Positions 1-7,734 of a stretch of DNA of 64,000 bases are shown piece by piece (the first letter of the stretch is position 1; every line of letters starts with the position of its first letter). Below the pieces are notes generated by a model. That model searched no databases. It was not told the DNA's origin and saw only the letters and a list, made by a program, of their open reading frames with translations. Source of the stretch: Escherichia coli (GTDB lineage Bacteria; Pseudomonadota; Gammaproteobacteria; Enterobacterales; Enterobacteriaceae); assembly GCF_045037415.1 (NCBI RefSeq), contig NZ_CP173438.1. One strand, given 5' to 3'. Made by a program: the position numbers and the translations under genes.

Positions 1-1
1 G

Positions 2-37
2 CTCACCACCAGCATTCGCGGGCTGGGGCTGGGCTGA
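2..37 (+). CDS. lfiP: 3' end of FliP-family export protein (Flag-2 LfiP), partial at window edge
   Basis: Open frame ending at TGA 35-37 immediately upstream of the FliQ-like gene; call rests on conserved fliP-fliQ-fliR order only, too short to judge by sequence. Confidence 0.3.
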   Translation, partial: LTTSIRGLGLG

Positions 38-39
38 TT

Positions 40-312
40 ATGTTGACCGTAGACGTCGCCGCCGACATTGTCGCCAGCGGCATTAAAGTAGTGATTTTGC
101 TGGTTTCGGTACTGGTGGTGCCAAGCCTGCTGGTCGGCCTGCTGGTGAGCGTGTTCCAGGCGGTGACGCAGATTAACGAACAGACCCTGAGCTTTTTGCC
201 AAGGCTGATTGTCACGCTGGTGGTGCTGGGCGTGTGCGGCAAATGGATGATTATCCAGTTGCATGATCTCTGCATTCACCTGTTTACCCAGGCCGCGTTG
301 CTGGTTCATTGA
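40..312 (+). CDS. lfiQ: FliQ-family flagellar export apparatus membrane protein (Flag-2 LfiQ)
   Basis: 90-aa hydrophobic ORF with FliQ-like core (SVFQAVTQINEQTLSFLPRLIV); precedes FliR/FlhB/FlhA homologues. Confidence 0.8.
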   Translation: MLTVDVAADIVASGIKVVILLVSVLVVPSLLVGLLVSVFQAVTQINEQTLSFLPRLIVTLVVLGVCGKWMIIQLHDLCIHLFTQAALLVH

Positions 313-313
313 G

Positions 314-1096
314 ATGCGCACAAGCGACGTTACGCAACTGATGGATCTGGCGCTGGGGCTGTGGTTTCCCTTCGTGCGCATTATGGCGTTTCTGCGCTAT
401 ATGCCGGTGCTGGATAACAGCGCCCTGACCGCGCGCGTGCGGATTATTTTGTCGCTGGCGCTGGCGATCATCATCACGCCGTTGATCCCCCATCCCATTC
501 CCCACAATCTGCTATCGCTCAACAGCCTGATCCTGACGGTGGAGCAAATTTTATGGGGCATGTTATTCGGGCTGATGTTTCAGTTTTTGTTTCTGGCGCT
601 ACAACTGGCCGGGCAAATTCTCTCGTTCAATATGGGGATGAGCATGGCGGTGATGAACGACCCGAGCAGCGGCGCATCGACCACCGTGCTGGCGGAGCTA
701 ATCAACGTCTACGCGATCCTGCTGTTTTTTGCCATGGACGGGCATCTGCTGCTGGTAAGCGTGTTGTACAAGGGCTTCACCTACTGGCCGATTGGCAACG
801 CCCTGCATCCGCAAACCCTGCGTACCATCGCGCTGGCCTTTAGCTGGGTGCTGGCGTCGGCATCGCTGCTGGCGCTGCCGACCACTTTTATCATGCTGAT
901 TGTGCAGGGCTGCTTTGGCTTGCTCAACCGTATTGCGCCGCCGCTGAACCTTTTTTCTCTTGGCTTTCCGATCAACATGCTGGCGGGGCTGGTCTGTTTT
1001 GCCACCCTGCTCTACAACCTGCCGGATCACTATCTGCATCTGGCGAATTTTGTCTTACAACAACTCGACGCGCTGAAAGGTCACTATGGCGGATAG
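314..1096 (+). CDS. lfiR: FliR-family flagellar export apparatus membrane protein (Flag-2 LfiR)
   Basis: Polytopic membrane ORF of FliR size; ATG at 314 two nt after the lfiQ stop (the ORF track starts upstream at 263); 11-nt overlap with the next gene. Confidence 0.8.
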   Translation: MRTSDVTQLMDLALGLWFPFVRIMAFLRYMPVLDNSALTARVRIILSLALAIIITPLIPHPIPHNLLSLNSLILTVEQILWGMLFGLMFQFLFLALQLAGQILSFNMGMSMAVMNDPSSGASTTVLAELINVYAILLFFAMDGHLLLVSVLYKGFTYWPIGNALHPQTLRTIALAFSWVLASASLLALPTTFIMLIVQGCFGLLNRIAPPLNLFSLGFPINMLAGLVCFATLLYNLPDHYLHLANFVLQQLDALKGHYGG

Positions 1097-2225
1097 CAGC
1101 AGCGAAGAAAAAACAGAGAAACCCTCGGCGCAAAAGCTGCGTAAAGCGCGTGAAGAGGGGCAACTGCCGCGCTCGAAGGATATGGGGCTGGCGGCGAGCC
1201 TGTTTGCGGCGTTTGTGGTGATCTCCAGCAGTTTTCCGTGGTATGCCGATTTTGTGCGCGAGAGCTTTATCAGCGTGCATCAGTATGCGCAGGAGATTAA
1301 TAACCCGCAGGTGATCGGCCAGTTTCTGCGCCATCACCTGTTAATTCTCGGCAAGTTTATCCTCACCTTGCTGCCGATGCCTGCTGCCGCGCTGCTCTCT
1401 TCGCTGGTGCCCGGCGGCTGGCTGTTTCTGCCAAAAAAAATCCTCCCGGATTTCAGCAAAATCAGTCCGTTAAAAGGCATTGGGCGGCTGTTTTCCAGTG
1501 AACATCTGGCGGAAACGGGAAAGATGACGGTGAAGTCTGTGGTGGTGCTGGTGATGCTGTGGGTAAGCCTGCGCAATAACTTTGCCGCCTTTCTCAGCCT
1601 GCAGGCGCTGCCGTTCAAACTGGCGATAAATGACGGTTTATCGCTCTACGCCAGCGTGATGCGCAACTTTGTCATTCTGTTTATCTTCTTCGCGCTTATC
1701 GACGTGCCGCTGGCGAAAGCCCTGTTCACCAAAGGGCTGAAGATGACCAAACAGGAGCTGAAAGAAGAGTACAAAAATCAGGAAGGTAAGCCGGAAGTGA
1801 AGGCGCGTGTGCGGCGACTGCAACGGCAACTGGCGATGGGGCAAATCCGCAAAGTGGTGCCGAAAGCCAACGTGGTGATCACCAACCCGACCCACTACGC
1901 CGTGGCGTTACAGTATGACCAGTCGCGCGCCGCCGCGCCGTTTGTGGTGGCAAAAGGCACCGATGAAATCGCCCTCTATATTCGCCAGGTCGCCACGGAG
2001 AATCAGGTGGAAGTGGTCGAGTTCCCGCGGCTGGCACGCTCGGTTTACTACACCACCCAGGTGAACCAGCAAATTCCGTTTCAGCTTTACCGGGCCATCG
2101 CCCACGTTCTGACCTACGTCCTGCAAATGAAACACTGGCGCGAGGGCGCACAGCCGCGCCCGGCCCTGAACAGACATATTTCCATTCCCAAAGAGGTGCT
2201 TAAACTGGATGGCGAAAACAACTAA
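1086..2225 (+). CDS. lfhB: FlhB-family export switch protein (Flag-2 LfhB)
   Basis: 379 aa; N-terminal KTEKPSAQKLRKAREEGQ and NPTH autocleavage motif (VVITNPTHYAVAL) typical of FlhB/SctU. Confidence 0.85.
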   Translation: MADSSSEEKTEKPSAQKLRKAREEGQLPRSKDMGLAASLFAAFVVISSSFPWYADFVRESFISVHQYAQEINNPQVIGQFLRHHLLILGKFILTLLPMPAAALLSSLVPGGWLFLPKKILPDFSKISPLKGIGRLFSSEHLAETGKMTVKSVVVLVMLWVSLRNNFAAFLSLQALPFKLAINDGLSLYASVMRNFVILFIFFALIDVPLAKALFTKGLKMTKQELKEEYKNQEGKPEVKARVRRLQRQLAMGQIRKVVPKANVVITNPTHYAVALQYDQSRAAAPFVVAKGTDEIALYIRQVATENQVEVVEFPRLARSVYYTTQVNQQIPFQLYRAIAHVLTYVLQMKHWREGAQPRPALNRHISIPKEVLKLDGENN

Positions 2226-4302
2226 ATCGTTCCTTGCGCTGCTGCGCGGCGGCAATCTCGGCGTGCCGCTGGTCATACTGTGTATTCTGGCGATGGTTAT
2301 TCTGCCGCTGCCGCCTGCGCTGCTGGATATTCTGTTCACCTTCAACATTGTGCTGGCGGTGATGGTACTGCTGGTGGCGGTGTCGGCGAAACGACCGCTG
2401 GAATTCAGCCTGTTCCCGACCATTTTGCTGATCACCACCTTAATGCGCCTGACGCTTAACGTCGCCTCTACGCGCGTGGTGCTGTTGCACGGGCATCTCG
2501 GCGCGGGCGCGGCGGGTAAGGTGATAGAGTCGTTTGGTCAGGTGGTGATCGGCGGCAACTTTGTCGTCGGTTTCGTGGTGTTTATCATCCTGATGATCAT
2601 CAACTTTATCGTCGTCACCAAAGGGGCCGAGCGTATTTCCGAGGTTTCTGCCCGCTTTACCCTGGACGCGATGCCCGGCAAACAGATGGCAATTGACGCC
2701 GATCTTAATGCCGGGTTGATCAACCAGGCACAGGCGCAGACCCGGCGCAAAGATGTTGCCAGCGAGGCCGATTTTTACGGCGCGATGGACGGGGCATCGA
2801 AGTTTGTGCGCGGGGATGCCATCGCCGGGATGATGATTCTGGCGATCAACCTGATCGGCGGCGTCTGTATTGGGATCTTCAAATACAACCTGAGCGCCGA
2901 TGCTGCCTTCCAGCAATATGTGTTGATGACCATCGGCGACGGCCTGGTGGCGCAGATCCCTTCCCTGCTGCTCTCCACCGCGGCGGCGATTATCGTCACC
3001 CGCGTCAGCGACAACGGCGATATCGCCCATGACGTGCGTAATCAGTTGCTGGCAAGCCCGTCGGTTCTCTACACCGCCACTGGAATTATGTTCGTGCTGG
3101 CGGTGGTGCCGGGAATGCCGCATTTCCCGTTCCTGATGTTCAGCGCCCTGCTTGGTTTTACCGGCTGGCGGATGAGCAAGCGCCCGCAAGCGGCGGAGGC
3201 GGAAGAGAAAAGCCTCGAAACGCTAACCCGTACGATGACAGAAACCAGCGAGCAACAGGTCAGTTGGGAAACTATTCCGCTGATCGAACCTATCAGTTTA
3301 AGCCTCGGCTACAAACTGGTGGCGCTGGTGGATAAAGCGCAGGGTAATCCGCTCACCCAGCGGATTCGCGGTGTACGGCAGGTGATATCCGACGGTAACG
3401 GAGTTCTGCTGCCGGAGATCCGTATTCGGGAAAACTTCCGCCTCAAGCCCAGCCAGTACGCCATTTTCATCAACGGCATTAAGGCTGATGAAGCGGATAT
3501 TCCGGCGGATAAACTGATGGCCCTGCCCTCCAGCGAAACCTACGGCGAGATTGACGGCGTACTGGGGAATGACCCGGCGTACGGGATGCCGGTCACCTGG
3601 ATTCAACCCGCGCAGAAAGCGAAGGCGCTGAATATGGGGTATCAGGTGATCGACAGCGCCAGCGTGATTGCCACCCATGTGAATAAGATTGTGCGCAGCT
3701 ATATTCCTGACCTCTTTAACTATGACGATATTACGCAGCTGCATAACCGTTTGTCGTCGATGGCACCGCGACTGGCGGAAGATTTGAGCGCGGCACTCAA
3801 TTACAGCCAGTTGCTGAAAGTGTACCGGGCGCTACTGACTGAAGGCGTTTCCCTGCGCGATATCGTCACCATCGCCACCGTGCTGGTCGCCAGTAGTGCG
3901 GTGACCAAAGATCATATTCTGCTGGCGGCAGATGTGCGCCTGGCGCTGCGGCGCAGCATTACCCATCCGTTCGTTCGCAAGCAGGAGCTGACGGTGTATA
4001 CGCTGAATAATGAGCTGGAAAATCTGCTGACCAACGTGGTGAATCAGGCGCAACAGGGCGGGAAAGTGATGCTTGATAGCGTGCCAGTGGACCCGAATAT
4101 GCTCAACCAGTTCCAGAGCACGATGCCTCAGGTGAAGGAGCAGATGAAAGCGGCGGGGAAAGATCCGGTGCTGCTGGTGCCGCCGCAACTGCGCCCCTTG
4201 CTGGCGCGCTACGCAAGGTTGTTTGCGCCGGGGCTGCATGTGCTGTCGTATAACGAAGTGCCGGATGAGCTGGAGTTGAAGATAATGGGGGCGTTGATGT
4301 AG
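2209..4302 (+). CDS. lfhA: FlhA-family export gate protein (Flag-2 LfhA), full length
   Basis: 697 aa with N-terminal TM domain and FlhA/SctV cytoplasmic domain; overlaps lfhB by 17 nt; lies beside rayT as in the described Flag-2 locus. Confidence 0.85.
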   Translation: MAKTTKSFLALLRGGNLGVPLVILCILAMVILPLPPALLDILFTFNIVLAVMVLLVAVSAKRPLEFSLFPTILLITTLMRLTLNVASTRVVLLHGHLGAGAAGKVIESFGQVVIGGNFVVGFVVFIILMIINFIVVTKGAERISEVSARFTLDAMPGKQMAIDADLNAGLINQAQAQTRRKDVASEADFYGAMDGASKFVRGDAIAGMMILAINLIGGVCIGIFKYNLSADAAFQQYVLMTIGDGLVAQIPSLLLSTAAAIIVTRVSDNGDIAHDVRNQLLASPSVLYTATGIMFVLAVVPGMPHFPFLMFSALLGFTGWRMSKRPQAAEAEEKSLETLTRTMTETSEQQVSWETIPLIEPISLSLGYKLVALVDKAQGNPLTQRIRGVRQVISDGNGVLLPEIRIRENFRLKPSQYAIFINGIKADEADIPADKLMALPSSETYGEIDGVLGNDPAYGMPVTWIQPAQKAKALNMGYQVIDSASVIATHVNKIVRSYIPDLFNYDDITQLHNRLSSMAPRLAEDLSAALNYSQLLKVYRALLTEGVSLRDIVTIATVLVASSAVTKDHILLAADVRLALRRSITHPFVRKQELTVYTLNNELENLLTNVVNQAQQGGKVMLDSVPVDPNMLNQFQSTMPQVKEQMKAAGKDPVLLVPPQLRPLLARYARLFAPGLHVLSYNEVPDELELKIMGALM

Positions 4303-4520
4303 GCATCCGGCATCGGTGCATATTGCCGGATGCGGCGTGAACGCCTTATCCGGCCTACGGGTGAGCACGGTTTTGTCGGCATGATAAGACGCGTAGCGGC
4401 GCATCTGGCACCGGTGCACAACTGCCGGATGCGGCGTGAACGCCTTATCCGGCCTACGGGTGAGCGCGGTTTTGTCGGCATGATAAGACGCATCTGCGTC
4501 GCATCAGGCATCGGCGCACA
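4303..4520. repeat. REP/BIME cluster (at least two GCCGGATGCGGCGTGAACGCCTTATCCGGCCTAC units plus inverted partners)
   Basis: Repeated palindromic REP consensus visible directly; located between the lfhA stop and the rayT 3' end. Confidence 0.85.
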
Positions 4521-4521
4521 G

Positions 4522-5019
4522 CTATAAAATGATACGCTCCCCAGCACTAAAATCCGTTACGTCCTCCGCCCAATCGATGGGATATAACCCTCGCGCGACA
4601 TCGCGATGAAACGTTGAGAATGGCCAATCACTCACTTGCTTTACCCAACCATGTTTTACTGGATTTATATAAATATAATCAACATGATGGCGATAGTCTT
4701 GGGTATTGCGAATGGCATGCTCCCAAAAACGCGGTTGCCAGATATTTTTCAATCCACAAGCATGGGTAAATTGCTTTTTAATTTCCCGCCAGCGCGAGGA
4801 AAAATCATCATCGCCTTCAGGTAATGTCCATATGCAATGCATATGCTCCGGCAAAACTACCCAAGCGTTAATTTCAAAAGGTCTGTCTCGCTTAACGTTA
4901 ATAATAGCGTTACGGAGCGTCTGAAACTGGGTGGTCAAAAGTTGGTTTCGACGATTCTGTAAATTTACCGTGAAAAACCAGGTTCCCCCCTTGATGTAAT
5001 AACGACGATATTCAGACAT
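4522..5019 (-). CDS. rayT: REP-associated tyrosine transposase (RAYT, IS200/IS605-like HUH protein)
   Basis: 165 aa with HUH-type HMH motif and conserved Tyr region (YIYINPVKHGWV); flanked on both sides by REP sequences. Confidence 0.85.
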   Translation of the reverse strand: MSEYRRYYIKGGTWFFTVNLQNRRNQLLTTQFQTLRNAIINVKRDRPFEINAWVVLPEHMHCIWTLPEGDDDFSSRWREIKKQFTHACGLKNIWQPRFWEHAIRNTQDYRHHVDYIYINPVKHGWVKQVSDWPFSTFHRDVARGLYPIDWAEDVTDFSAGERIIL

Positions 5020-5104
5020 AACGACTCCTTTTTCTCAACGGTAAGAAGAAAAGGAAAAGTCGGCAATGATGTTGTGTTAAATCGGGAAAGCGGCTCGCAA
5101 AAAA

Positions 5105-5198
5105 TGCACAGATTTATAGGCATGATAAGACGCGTAGCGTCGCATCAGGCACCGGTACACAACCGCCGGATGCGGCGTGAACGCCTTATCCGGCCTAC
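5105..5198. repeat. REP element(s) on the other flank of rayT
   Basis: GCATGATAAGACGCG...GCCGGATGCGGCGTGAACGCCTTATCCGGCCTAC; abuts and overlaps the yafL stop codon. Confidence 0.8.
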
Positions 5199-5953
5199 AA
5201 AATCGTCTCTTCCGTCAAAATCCGCCGCGCGCCCAAAAAATGATCCTGCCAGAAAGGTTCAGCTAACCGACTTACCCGAATGGTTTCCCCGGTGCGCGGT
5301 GACTCGATAAACTGACCGTCTCCAAGATATACGCCCATATGGTCGGCTATCTCACGGCTGTGGATATGGAAAAACAGCAAATCTCCCCGGCGCAGGTCGT
5401 TATTCGCCACAATCGTTGCCCGACGGTAGTGGTACATCTCATTGGCCGTGCGCGGGAGCTTAGCCTCAAGGATCTTGTTGTAGGCATAAAAAACCAACCC
5501 GCTACAGTCGAAACCTTTATCAGGCCGCGTGCCCCCCCAGACATAAGGCTTGCCAAGTTGCTGTTCCAGGCGGTGAATCGCCACTTCGGTGATGTTATGC
5601 AGGTGGTTGCTGCTGAGGAAATGATTGTTTTCCGCCAGCGCCTGCCAGCGTCTGTCGTTCGCCTTGAGCGGCGCAGGAAACCATTCTGGATGCTGTTTTA
5701 TCTGCTCCCGATTATGCTGGCGCAGCGCCCTTCTGCTTTTAGCATTGCCTTCCACAATATAGCTGGCCTGCTTTTTCAGATGGGTTTGGTACTGTTTTAA
5801 TAAACGCGCACGGTTTTGCATCCGCTGGCGGGCGGCGTAGCTAAAAGAGATATGTGATGTGGTGGCGCTGGCGAGTAAAGGGAGCAAAACGCATAACGAA
5901 AACACGCCTGGATGCAGAAATCTGCCGTGCAAGAACGAAGACATGAAGGACAT
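5195..5953 (-). CDS. yafL: NlpC/P60-family lipoprotein (peptidoglycan endopeptidase-like)
   Basis: 252-aa ORF with signal peptide and C-terminal NlpC/P60-like region (DCSGLVFYAY ... HMGVYLGDGQFIES); exact start uncertain. Confidence 0.75.
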   Translation of the reverse strand: MSFMSSFLHGRFLHPGVFSLCVLLPLLASATTSHISFSYAARQRMQNRARLLKQYQTHLKKQASYIVEGNAKSRRALRQHNREQIKQHPEWFPAPLKANDRRWQALAENNHFLSSNHLHNITEVAIHRLEQQLGKPYVWGGTRPDKGFDCSGLVFYAYNKILEAKLPRTANEMYHYRRATIVANNDLRRGDLLFFHIHSREIADHMGVYLGDGQFIESPRTGETIRVSRLAEPFWQDHFLGARRILTEETIL

Positions 5954-6255
5954 AAACCAGCTGAATGAAGGTGAGAATTTTAAAAGACCGGAGGAGTAAA
6001 CGGGATTATTAATTGCTTATTTGCATATTACTATTGCGGTTTCATAATCTTAGGAAATAAGAAATAAATCTACAATCCATGCGCTTTTCGGACTCTTGAA
6101 AACTGCACCTGTGCTAAATTTGTAAACCCTGCGCCGACAGGCTTGCGTAAAACTCTTTTGGTGATAATGTGAGCCTTCCAAATCCAGACTATTCCGATTT
6201 GGGATTCATTTTGCCGTCCTGGCGTGTGTAACCGTTTTATCAAGGAATAAGCAGT

Positions 6256-6996
6256 ATGCGTAAAATCGCATTAATTCTTGCGATGTTGTTGATCCCATGC
6301 GTTTCGTTTGCCGGTTTGCTGGGCAGCAGTAGCTCGACCACGCCAGTGAGCAAAGAGTATAAGCAGCAGTTGATGGGATCCCCTGTCTACATCCAGATCT
6401 TCAAGGAAGAACGTACGCTCGATCTCTACGTCAAAATGGGCGAGCAATATCAACTGCTCGACAGCTATAAAATCTGTAAATATTCCGGCGGCTTAGGGCC
6501 AAAACAGCGTCAGGGCGATTTCAAAAGCCCGGAAGGGTTTTATAGCGTCCAGCGTAATCAGTTAAAACCAGACAGCCGTTACTACAAAGCGATTAATATT
6601 GGATTCCCAAACGCCTATGACCGTGCGCATGGTTATGAAGGGAAATACCTGATGATTCACGGCGATTGTGTTTCCATCGGCTGCTACGCGATGACCAATC
6701 AGGGTATTGATGAGATCTTCCAGTTCGTTACTGGTGCGCTGGTGTTTGGTCAGCCGAGCGTGCAAGTGAGTATTTATCCGTTCCGCATGACCGACGCCAA
6801 TATGAAGCGCCATAAATATTCCAACTTTAAGGACTTCTGGGAGCAACTGAAGCCGGGCTACGACTACTTTGAGCAAACCCGTAAGCCACCGACCGTTTCT
6901 GTGGTCAATGGCCGTTACGTGGTCAGCAAGCCGTTAAGCCACGAAGTTGTGCAGCCACAACTGGCATCAAACTACACGCTCCCCGAGGCAAAATAA
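6256..6996 (+). CDS. yafK: L,D-transpeptidase-family periplasmic protein YafK
   Basis: 246 aa with signal peptide and YkuD-type motif ([12 protein letters not shown]); position between yafL and yafJ. Confidence 0.8.
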
Positions 6997-7734
6997 GCGC
7001 CATTCACCTGGCATAATCTTTTGCCAGGTTTCATTGCCCGTCAGCGGCTGTGTCGCAATCACCGTGACCACATCATTCGGTGTGGTCTGCGAGCTGAAGT
7101 CGATTTCCACATCCTGATCCAGCAACGTTGCCACGCCAAACGGCGCGCGGCGGGTGATCCAGTGTAAATTAGTCGAGCAATACGCCATTACATAGCGCCC
7201 GTCAGAAAGCAGCATGTTGAAAACGCCCTTCTGCCGCAGTTCATCCGCCAGTGAGGCGATATATTTAAACACTGCCGCCATGTTGCCCGGTGTGCGCGGG
7301 TAACGCTGCGTTAATTTATGCAGGAGCCAGCAAAAGGCTTTTTCGCTATCGGTTTCACCGACCGGGCGGAAGTTGCCGGTTTCCAGTGATTTGTAGCCCG
7401 TCAGTTGTCCATTATGGGCATAAGTCCAGTTACGCCCCCATAACTCGCGGGTAAACGGGTGAGTATTTTCCAGCGCCACCTCGCCCCGATTAGCCTGGCG
7501 AATATGAGCCACCACCGAACAGGATTTTATCGGGTAGTCCTGGACAAGTTTGGCGATGGGGGAATTAAAGCTGGGTTGCGGATCTTTAAATGTGCGACAG
7601 CCTTTACCTTCGTAAAAGGTAATGCCCCAGCCATCTTTATGTGGCCCGGTTCCACCACCACGCTGTACAAGTCCGGTGAAACTAAAGCAGATATCGGTAG
7701 GGACGTTGGCACTCATCCCGAGCAATTCGCACAT
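6967..7734 (-). CDS. yafJ: Class II glutamine amidotransferase-like protein YafJ
   Basis: ORF starts MCELLG (N-terminal Cys nucleophile after Met); ATG at 7732-7734 with GGAGG upstream; 255 aa. Confidence 0.8.

Follow-up and report, generated by a model that had tools for sequence, protein, structure and literature searches.

A yafL-dpaA locus of Escherichia coli without dinJ-yafQ, probably the ancestral allele

Introduction

Chromosomal toxin-antitoxin (TA) systems are reportedly distributed unevenly among the phylogroups of E. coli, and they are said to be subject to horizontal gene transfer. The type II system ccdO157 is one chromosomal example of a presence/absence polymorphism in this species. 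According to one review, no TA system is common to the strains MG1655, W, EDL933 and UTI89, and the same review cites work on the uneven distribution of TA systems and on the horizontal transfer of those encoded in chromosomes.

The locus described here raises the question of how one such difference between strains came about. In K-12, the pair dinJ-yafQ is found between yafL and dpaA, the current name of yafK; the order given in a first-pass annotation of the present DNA agrees with the K-12 record, which reads dpaA(yafK)-yafQ-dinJ-yafL. In the DNA analysed here the same two neighbours are separated by a short intergenic region, and the pair may have been excised from this position, replaced by an empty allele from another lineage, moved elsewhere or never acquired.

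The locus and its genes

The window, that is, the whole 64-kb stretch of DNA that was analysed, comes from E. coli and is oriented in reverse relative to the K-12 map. Beyond dpaA it continues with yafJ, gmhA and fadE. The features around the intergenic region are the following.

2209-4302, plus strand: lfhA, full length, 697 aa
4522-5019, minus strand: rayT, REP-associated transposase gene
5195-5953, minus strand: yafL, an NlpC/P60 (C40) peptidase, from its ORF and a Pfam NLPC_P60 match at 2.6e-33
5873-5953, minus strand: yafL signal-peptide codons MSFMSSFLHGRFLHPGVFSLCVLLPLL, placed by protein alignment, inside the variable segment and of the window/outgroup type
5873-6115, no strand: 243-bp segment in place of an 838-bp segment of K-12, delimited by blastn breakpoints, probably ancestral-type sequence
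5954-6255, no strand: yafL-dpaA intergenic region, presumably with the promoters of both divergent genes, free of TA genes and LexA boxes
6115-6116, no strand: site matching the dpaA-side junction of the K-12-type dinJ-yafQ cassette; K-12 homology restarts at 6116
6116-6255, plus strand: block upstream of dpaA, probably with its promoter, 5' leader and ribosome-binding site, from 98.7% identity to K-12 and conservation across species
6256-6996, plus strand: dpaA (yafK), a YkuD-fold peptidoglycan meso-DAP protein amidase, from its ORF, a Pfam YkuD match at 2.9e-08 and the RefSeq annotation

The genes yafL and dpaA are divergent, and the gap between them (5954-6255) measures 302 bp with a G+C content of 0.394, in agreement with its first description as an A/T-rich interval of that length. 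The start of yafL is ambiguous: an ATG at 5953 gives a protein of 252 aa and an ATG at 5944 one of 249 aa. In strain SK1144, which is 100% identical to the window and in which yafL is annotated, PGAP picks the second ATG (5944), which gives a gap of 311 bp. This start corresponds to a signal peptide of 25 aa, equal in length to that of K-12, and E. albertii, Escherichia sp. E1V33 and the E. coli-labelled locus L002 have a Met only at this second position. The ambiguity is minor and has no effect on the finding that the TA pair is absent.

The neighbourhood on the yafL side has features of its own. The Flag-2 (lateral flagella) genes are intact in window 1-4302, and the annotation of SK1144 upstream of lfhA lists fliP/fliQ/fliR/flhB/flhA, while in K-12 the Flag-2 position is reduced to pseudogenes of lfhA and lafU. 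A REP/BIME element at 5119-5195 lies between rayT and yafL, beside the REP-associated transposase gene, and corresponds to the Rfam family naRNA4 (RF02564) on both strands, with 69.1 and 53.9 bits. Further REP-like repeats are found around 4330-4530.

Absence of dinJ-yafQ

A dinJ-yafQ module is expected to comprise a RelB/DinJ antitoxin of about 86 aa, a RelE-fold toxin of the YafQ_toxin family of about 92 aa, encoded immediately downstream of the antitoxin, and a LexA box or palindromic operator; none of these three features was found in the gap. The longest mechanically called ORFs that touch it encode 57, 46, 43, 37 and 30 aa, which agrees with the earlier reading that no ORF of TA size is present. 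These five ORFs of at least 30 aa gave no match at E≤10 to the Pfam families RelB and YafQ_toxin, in a search that recovered K-12 DinJ at 1.3e-34 and K-12 YafQ at 1.6e-31 as positive controls. Remnants were sought across the 64-kb window by tblastn, with word size 2 and E values up to 1000, and the best matches, at E 0.39 for K-12 DinJ and 0.18 for K-12 YafQ, are at the level of noise. In blastn with word size 7, the 838-bp segment of K-12 that carries the pair matched the window only in chance words of 12-17 bases.

The regulatory signature of the operon is missing too. The motif CTGT-N8-ACAG, for which the gap had been read by eye in the first-pass annotation, is absent from the entire 64-kb window, and the shorter CTG-N10-CAG is absent from 5700-6500. 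The best 20-mer of the gap differs from the LexA consensus at 8 positions, compared with 5 mismatches for the dinJ box of K-12. The claim that the module is missing between yafL and yafK is borne out at each of these levels, with no homologue, no ORF of TA size and no LexA box, and the sensitive search of 5954-6255 brought no dinJ-yafQ homologue to light.

Replacement of a segment rather than a clean insertion or deletion

Alignment by blastn places window 6116-6500 on K-12 245945-245561 with 98.7% identity and window 5700-5872 on K-12 246956-246784 with 95.4%. The homology breaks at 5872/5873 and 6115/6116, and between these endpoints 243 bp of the window stand opposite 838 bp of K-12. Between the two alleles one segment has been exchanged for another, and the gap has not simply gained or lost sequence. 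The K-12 segment comprises yafQ, dinJ, the promoter with the LexA box, the yafL promoter and 24 codons of the YafL signal peptide. Its dpaA-side junction lies 15 bp past the yafQ stop codon in K-12, and the second one falls within the yafL gene, at the first codon of the mature protein (…A, then SATTSHISF…). The 243-bp segment accordingly reaches 81 bp into the 252-aa ORF of yafL and covers its signal-peptide codons. In protein alignment, the YafL signal peptides of the window (MSFMSSFLHGRFLHPGVFSLCVLLPLLA) and of K-12 (MSLPSIPSFVLSGLLLICLPFSSFA) differ, and the K-12-type sequence MSLPSIPSFVLSGLLLICLPFSSF is unlike the window type.

Overall, the dinJ-yafQ locus of K-12 (b0225-b0226) and the window share rayT-yafL on one side and dpaA-yafJ-gmhA-fadE on the other, with flanks that are 95-99% identical, whereas the LexA box CTGTATATTTATTCAG and the other yafL promoter and signal peptide are found in K-12 only, and the 243 bp that the window has in place of the 838 bp are unrelated or very diverged. 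The best reading of the K-12 segment divides it into a cassette of about 640 bp with yafQ, dinJ and the LexA-box promoter, and a very diverged block with the yafL promoter and signal peptide. The part near yafL can still be recognised as homologous to regions upstream of yafL: its best match among the 80 species loci described below is the one in C. amalonaticus (67% over 133 bp, E=1e-10). No donor of the K-12-type yafL 5' end was found among these loci.

This geometry bears on one account of the empty site, an in-situ deletion that excised dinJ-yafQ from a K-12-like allele and left the 302-bp gap as its scar. The shorter interval is the one observation in favour of this account, which is barely credible, since a deletion cannot create 243 bp that K-12 lacks and that are collinear with E. 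albertii, E1V33 and Citrobacter. Moreover, no TA remnants were seen by blastn, tblastn or Pfam search, and the signal peptide of YafL is of the outgroup type. A deletion scar would consist of cassette fragments or of flanks joined without extra sequence; the window has neither, and this candidate was rejected.

Which state is ancestral

The loci of other species were collected by a scan for DpaA with one genome per species, from which the best 80 of 145 loci were compared, in a set that does not include E. fergusonii. In 14 of these best 80 loci yafL adjoins dpaA in divergent orientation, namely in E. albertii, three other non-K-12 Escherichia, about nine Citrobacter species and Phytobacter massiliensis. 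The gap measures about 300-350 bp and is free of TA genes in 13 of the 14, the sole TA carrier being Escherichia sp. MOD1-EC7003. Over their full length, the 243 bp of the window can be aligned with E. albertii (191/243, 79%), with Escherichia sp. E1V33 (200/243, 82%) and with the E. coli-labelled L002 (193/243, 79%), and the alignment of the gap with Citrobacter is partial. At the protein level, the N-termini of YafL in Citrobacter (MSFVSAPRRFLPGLLSLCVVLS…), E. albertii and E1V33 are similar to that of the window, and the K-12 type resembles none of them.

The first-pass annotation had left it open whether the module is missing from this position or had never been gained. The second option is favoured because 5873-6115 is collinear with the TA-less gaps of E. 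albertii, two other non-K-12 Escherichia and Citrobacter, as is expected of an ancestral allele, and because a deletion from a K-12-like allele cannot yield sequence that is absent from K-12 yet common to the outgroups. We infer the direction of change from outgroup parsimony, together with a published mapping of the pair onto phylogroups (PMC6896753); both favour the empty site as the ancestral arrangement and the TA-bearing allele as derived.

The window very probably represents an ancestral, TA-less yafL-dpaA allele from a lineage into which dinJ-yafQ was never inserted. On this account, the gap would hold the promoter and signal-peptide region of yafL beside a conserved block with the promoter and leader of dpaA. 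The K-12-type allele would have arisen by insertion of the cassette of about 640 bp, with yafQ, dinJ and their DinJ/LexA-controlled promoter, at the upstream edge of the dpaA block, where it would read toward dpaA and be linked to the very diverged yafL promoter and signal peptide. From there, homologous recombination in the flanking sequence would carry the K-12-type haplotype from one lineage to another. The presence of the TA pair in MOD1-EC7003 speaks against the ancestral reading, as the pair could formally be part of an old polymorphism and have been lost later from some of the lineages.

Distribution of the two alleles in E. coli

The contiguous window-type allele, called where at least 80% of window 5800-6400 was covered in a single place, is carried by 2,082 of 5,426 complete E. 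coli genomes (about 38%), among them CFT073 (99.7%) and four strains at 100%. Over 5800-6400, the TA-less allele of CFT073 and 2,081 others is 99.7-100% identical to the window, with yafL and then dpaA annotated, and there is no difference of substance between this allele class and the window. Minor sub-alleles exist within this class, set apart by a few SNPs and the loss of 11 bp at 6067-6077. The pair dinJ-yafQ was detected in 3,340 genomes of this set, so that both classes add up to 5,422, and the flanks were matched as two separate places in about 3,342 genomes, a number equal to the TA-bearing count. Since the counts are almost fully complementary, the two alleles are mutually exclusive, and genomes with the empty site have no near-identical copy of the pair elsewhere.

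These counts also bear on the idea that the module is present after all, in diverged, relocated or overlooked form, as a RelB/YafQ pair elsewhere in the genome or in an assembly gap. It draws some support from the fact that only 64 kb of the genome were read and from the abundance of YafQ/RelE-family toxins, to which 1,185 plasmid records have a match. The idea is nevertheless highly improbable, as nothing was found in the window, the same contiguous allele recurs in 2,082 complete genomes, and the agreement between TA-bearing and split-flank genomes leaves no room for relocated near-identical copies. For the part of the source genome outside the window, the population counts are the best available proxy for the absence of the pair.

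In the published mapping, every genome of the E/B1/A lineage has yafQ-dinJ, and within the F/G/B2 lineage only phylogroup F does, a pattern that was read as acquisition (PMC6896753). The TA-less allele of the window fits this absence outside the E/B1/A lineage and phylogroup F. The presence or absence of dinJ-yafQ is an unremarkable polymorphism of accessory genes and has been described before; the precise junctions may be new, as may the observation that the TA haplotype comes with another promoter and signal peptide of yafL. The locus resembles other chromosomal TA polymorphisms in that a small cassette occupies a fixed intergenic site which is empty in some lineages, and it is unlike them in that the dinJ-yafQ allele also replaces the 5' end of the neighbouring yafL.

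Exchange and decay of the TA haplotype

Between K-12 and MOD1-EC7003, the 838-bp TA segment (L005:4023-4860) is 96.9% identical, and beside it the mature part of yafL is 89.0% and dpaA plus yafJ 95.6% identical. As the TA segment is more alike than the adjacent yafL, these identities suggest that the haplotype has been exchanged between lineages by recombination. YafQ-family toxins that are 78-81% identical to K-12 YafQ occur on small and on about 40-kb enterobacterial plasmids, and these relatives are consistent with a possible mobile origin of the cassette.

If haplotypes move in this way, the empty allele could have been imported as well. Under such an allelic replacement, a TA-bearing ancestor of the window would have received the empty allele from another Escherichia lineage, a secondary loss that would leave exactly the observed sequence. 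Besides the exchange just described, the unusual divergence of the yafL side between the window and K-12 (90-96% identity, against 97-100% on the dpaA side) can be cited for it. However, the mature-part DNA of yafL is only 86-93% identical among the Escherichia lineages compared (5195-5872 against L001-L005), with 92-98% for dpaA plus yafJ, and between the window and K-12 the values are 92.8% for yafL and 98.1% for dpaA plus yafJ; the gene evolves much faster than its neighbours, and divergence alone is no sign of import. The replacement also needs an extra event, and the published mapping places the pair as a gain in E/B1/A and F (PMC6896753). We regard it as unlikely and retain the reading of the window as an allele that never received the cassette.

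Two TA-bearing loci illustrate decay of the pair. Strain P276M, considered as a carrier of a third allele, was rejected in this role: its locus (L085:1518-2985) is of the K-12 type, with dinJ, yafQ and yafL frameshifted or stop-containing and the TA genes decayed to pseudogenes, in a genome with many frameshifts. In E. coli strain 167 (H41), an IS1 is inserted in the dinJ-yafQ region.

The intergenic region

The 140 bp next to dpaA (6116-6255) are strongly conserved, position by position, in an alignment across 80 Enterobacteriaceae species. Conserved motifs upstream of dpaA include TGTAAAC, CTTGCGAAAAA, GGTGCTAATGTGAGCG, CAGA-N-TCTGATTT and TTTGCCGTCCTGGC, several of them near-invariant, and TTTATCAAGGAA forms a conserved ribosome-binding region in front of the gene. 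The K-12-type cassette is joined precisely to the upstream edge of the block, which is therefore intact in both alleles. Within 5954-6115, an AT-rich core at about 6000-6062 is conserved in Escherichia and presumably represents the yafL promoter. The gap would function here only as a bidirectional promoter region.

Searches for further elements gave little. A consensus scan for promoters and terminators over 5800-6400 returned 2 promoter-like sites, with 1.1 expected from shuffles, and an Rfam scan of 5000-7200 found no RNA family in the gap, the naRNA4 element at 5119-5195 being the only match. A candidate conserved hairpin around the TTGCGA motif upstream of dpaA was rejected as a supported structure. 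RNAalifold gave only 4 pairs over 81 sequences, and the inverted repeat flanking TTGCGA folds strongly in Escherichia, Citrobacter and Phytobacter but has no family-wide support (mean z -0.43 against arm-shuffled controls, 70 unique sequences).

Implications

The junctions, together with the yafL 5' end that changes along with the cassette, provide a clean marker of the two haplotypes, although the practical value of the finding is small. A modest hypothesis that follows from the layout is that the haplotype has linked effects on the expression of yafL and dpaA. A bolder version, which we put forward tentatively and consider rather unlikely, is that the dinJ-yafQ haplotype was imported as a block of about 0.84 kb, which exchanges the promoter and the whole signal peptide of YafL and sets an operon that reads toward dpaA, under DinJ/LexA control, 155 bp upstream of that gene. 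If so, the regulation or export of YafL and DpaA would not be the same in TA-positive and TA-negative E. coli, and the polymorphism may owe its selective value to this difference and not to the toxin. YafL is a peptidoglycan hydrolase, and with DpaA two cell-wall enzymes would be affected if this were true.

For the biology of E. coli, the gene order of K-12 at this locus is not the default of the species: dinJ-yafQ belongs to the accessory genes and is missing from about 38% of complete genomes. The phenotypes attributed to YafQ in K-12, such as biofilm tolerance and persistence, should not be assumed for such strains.
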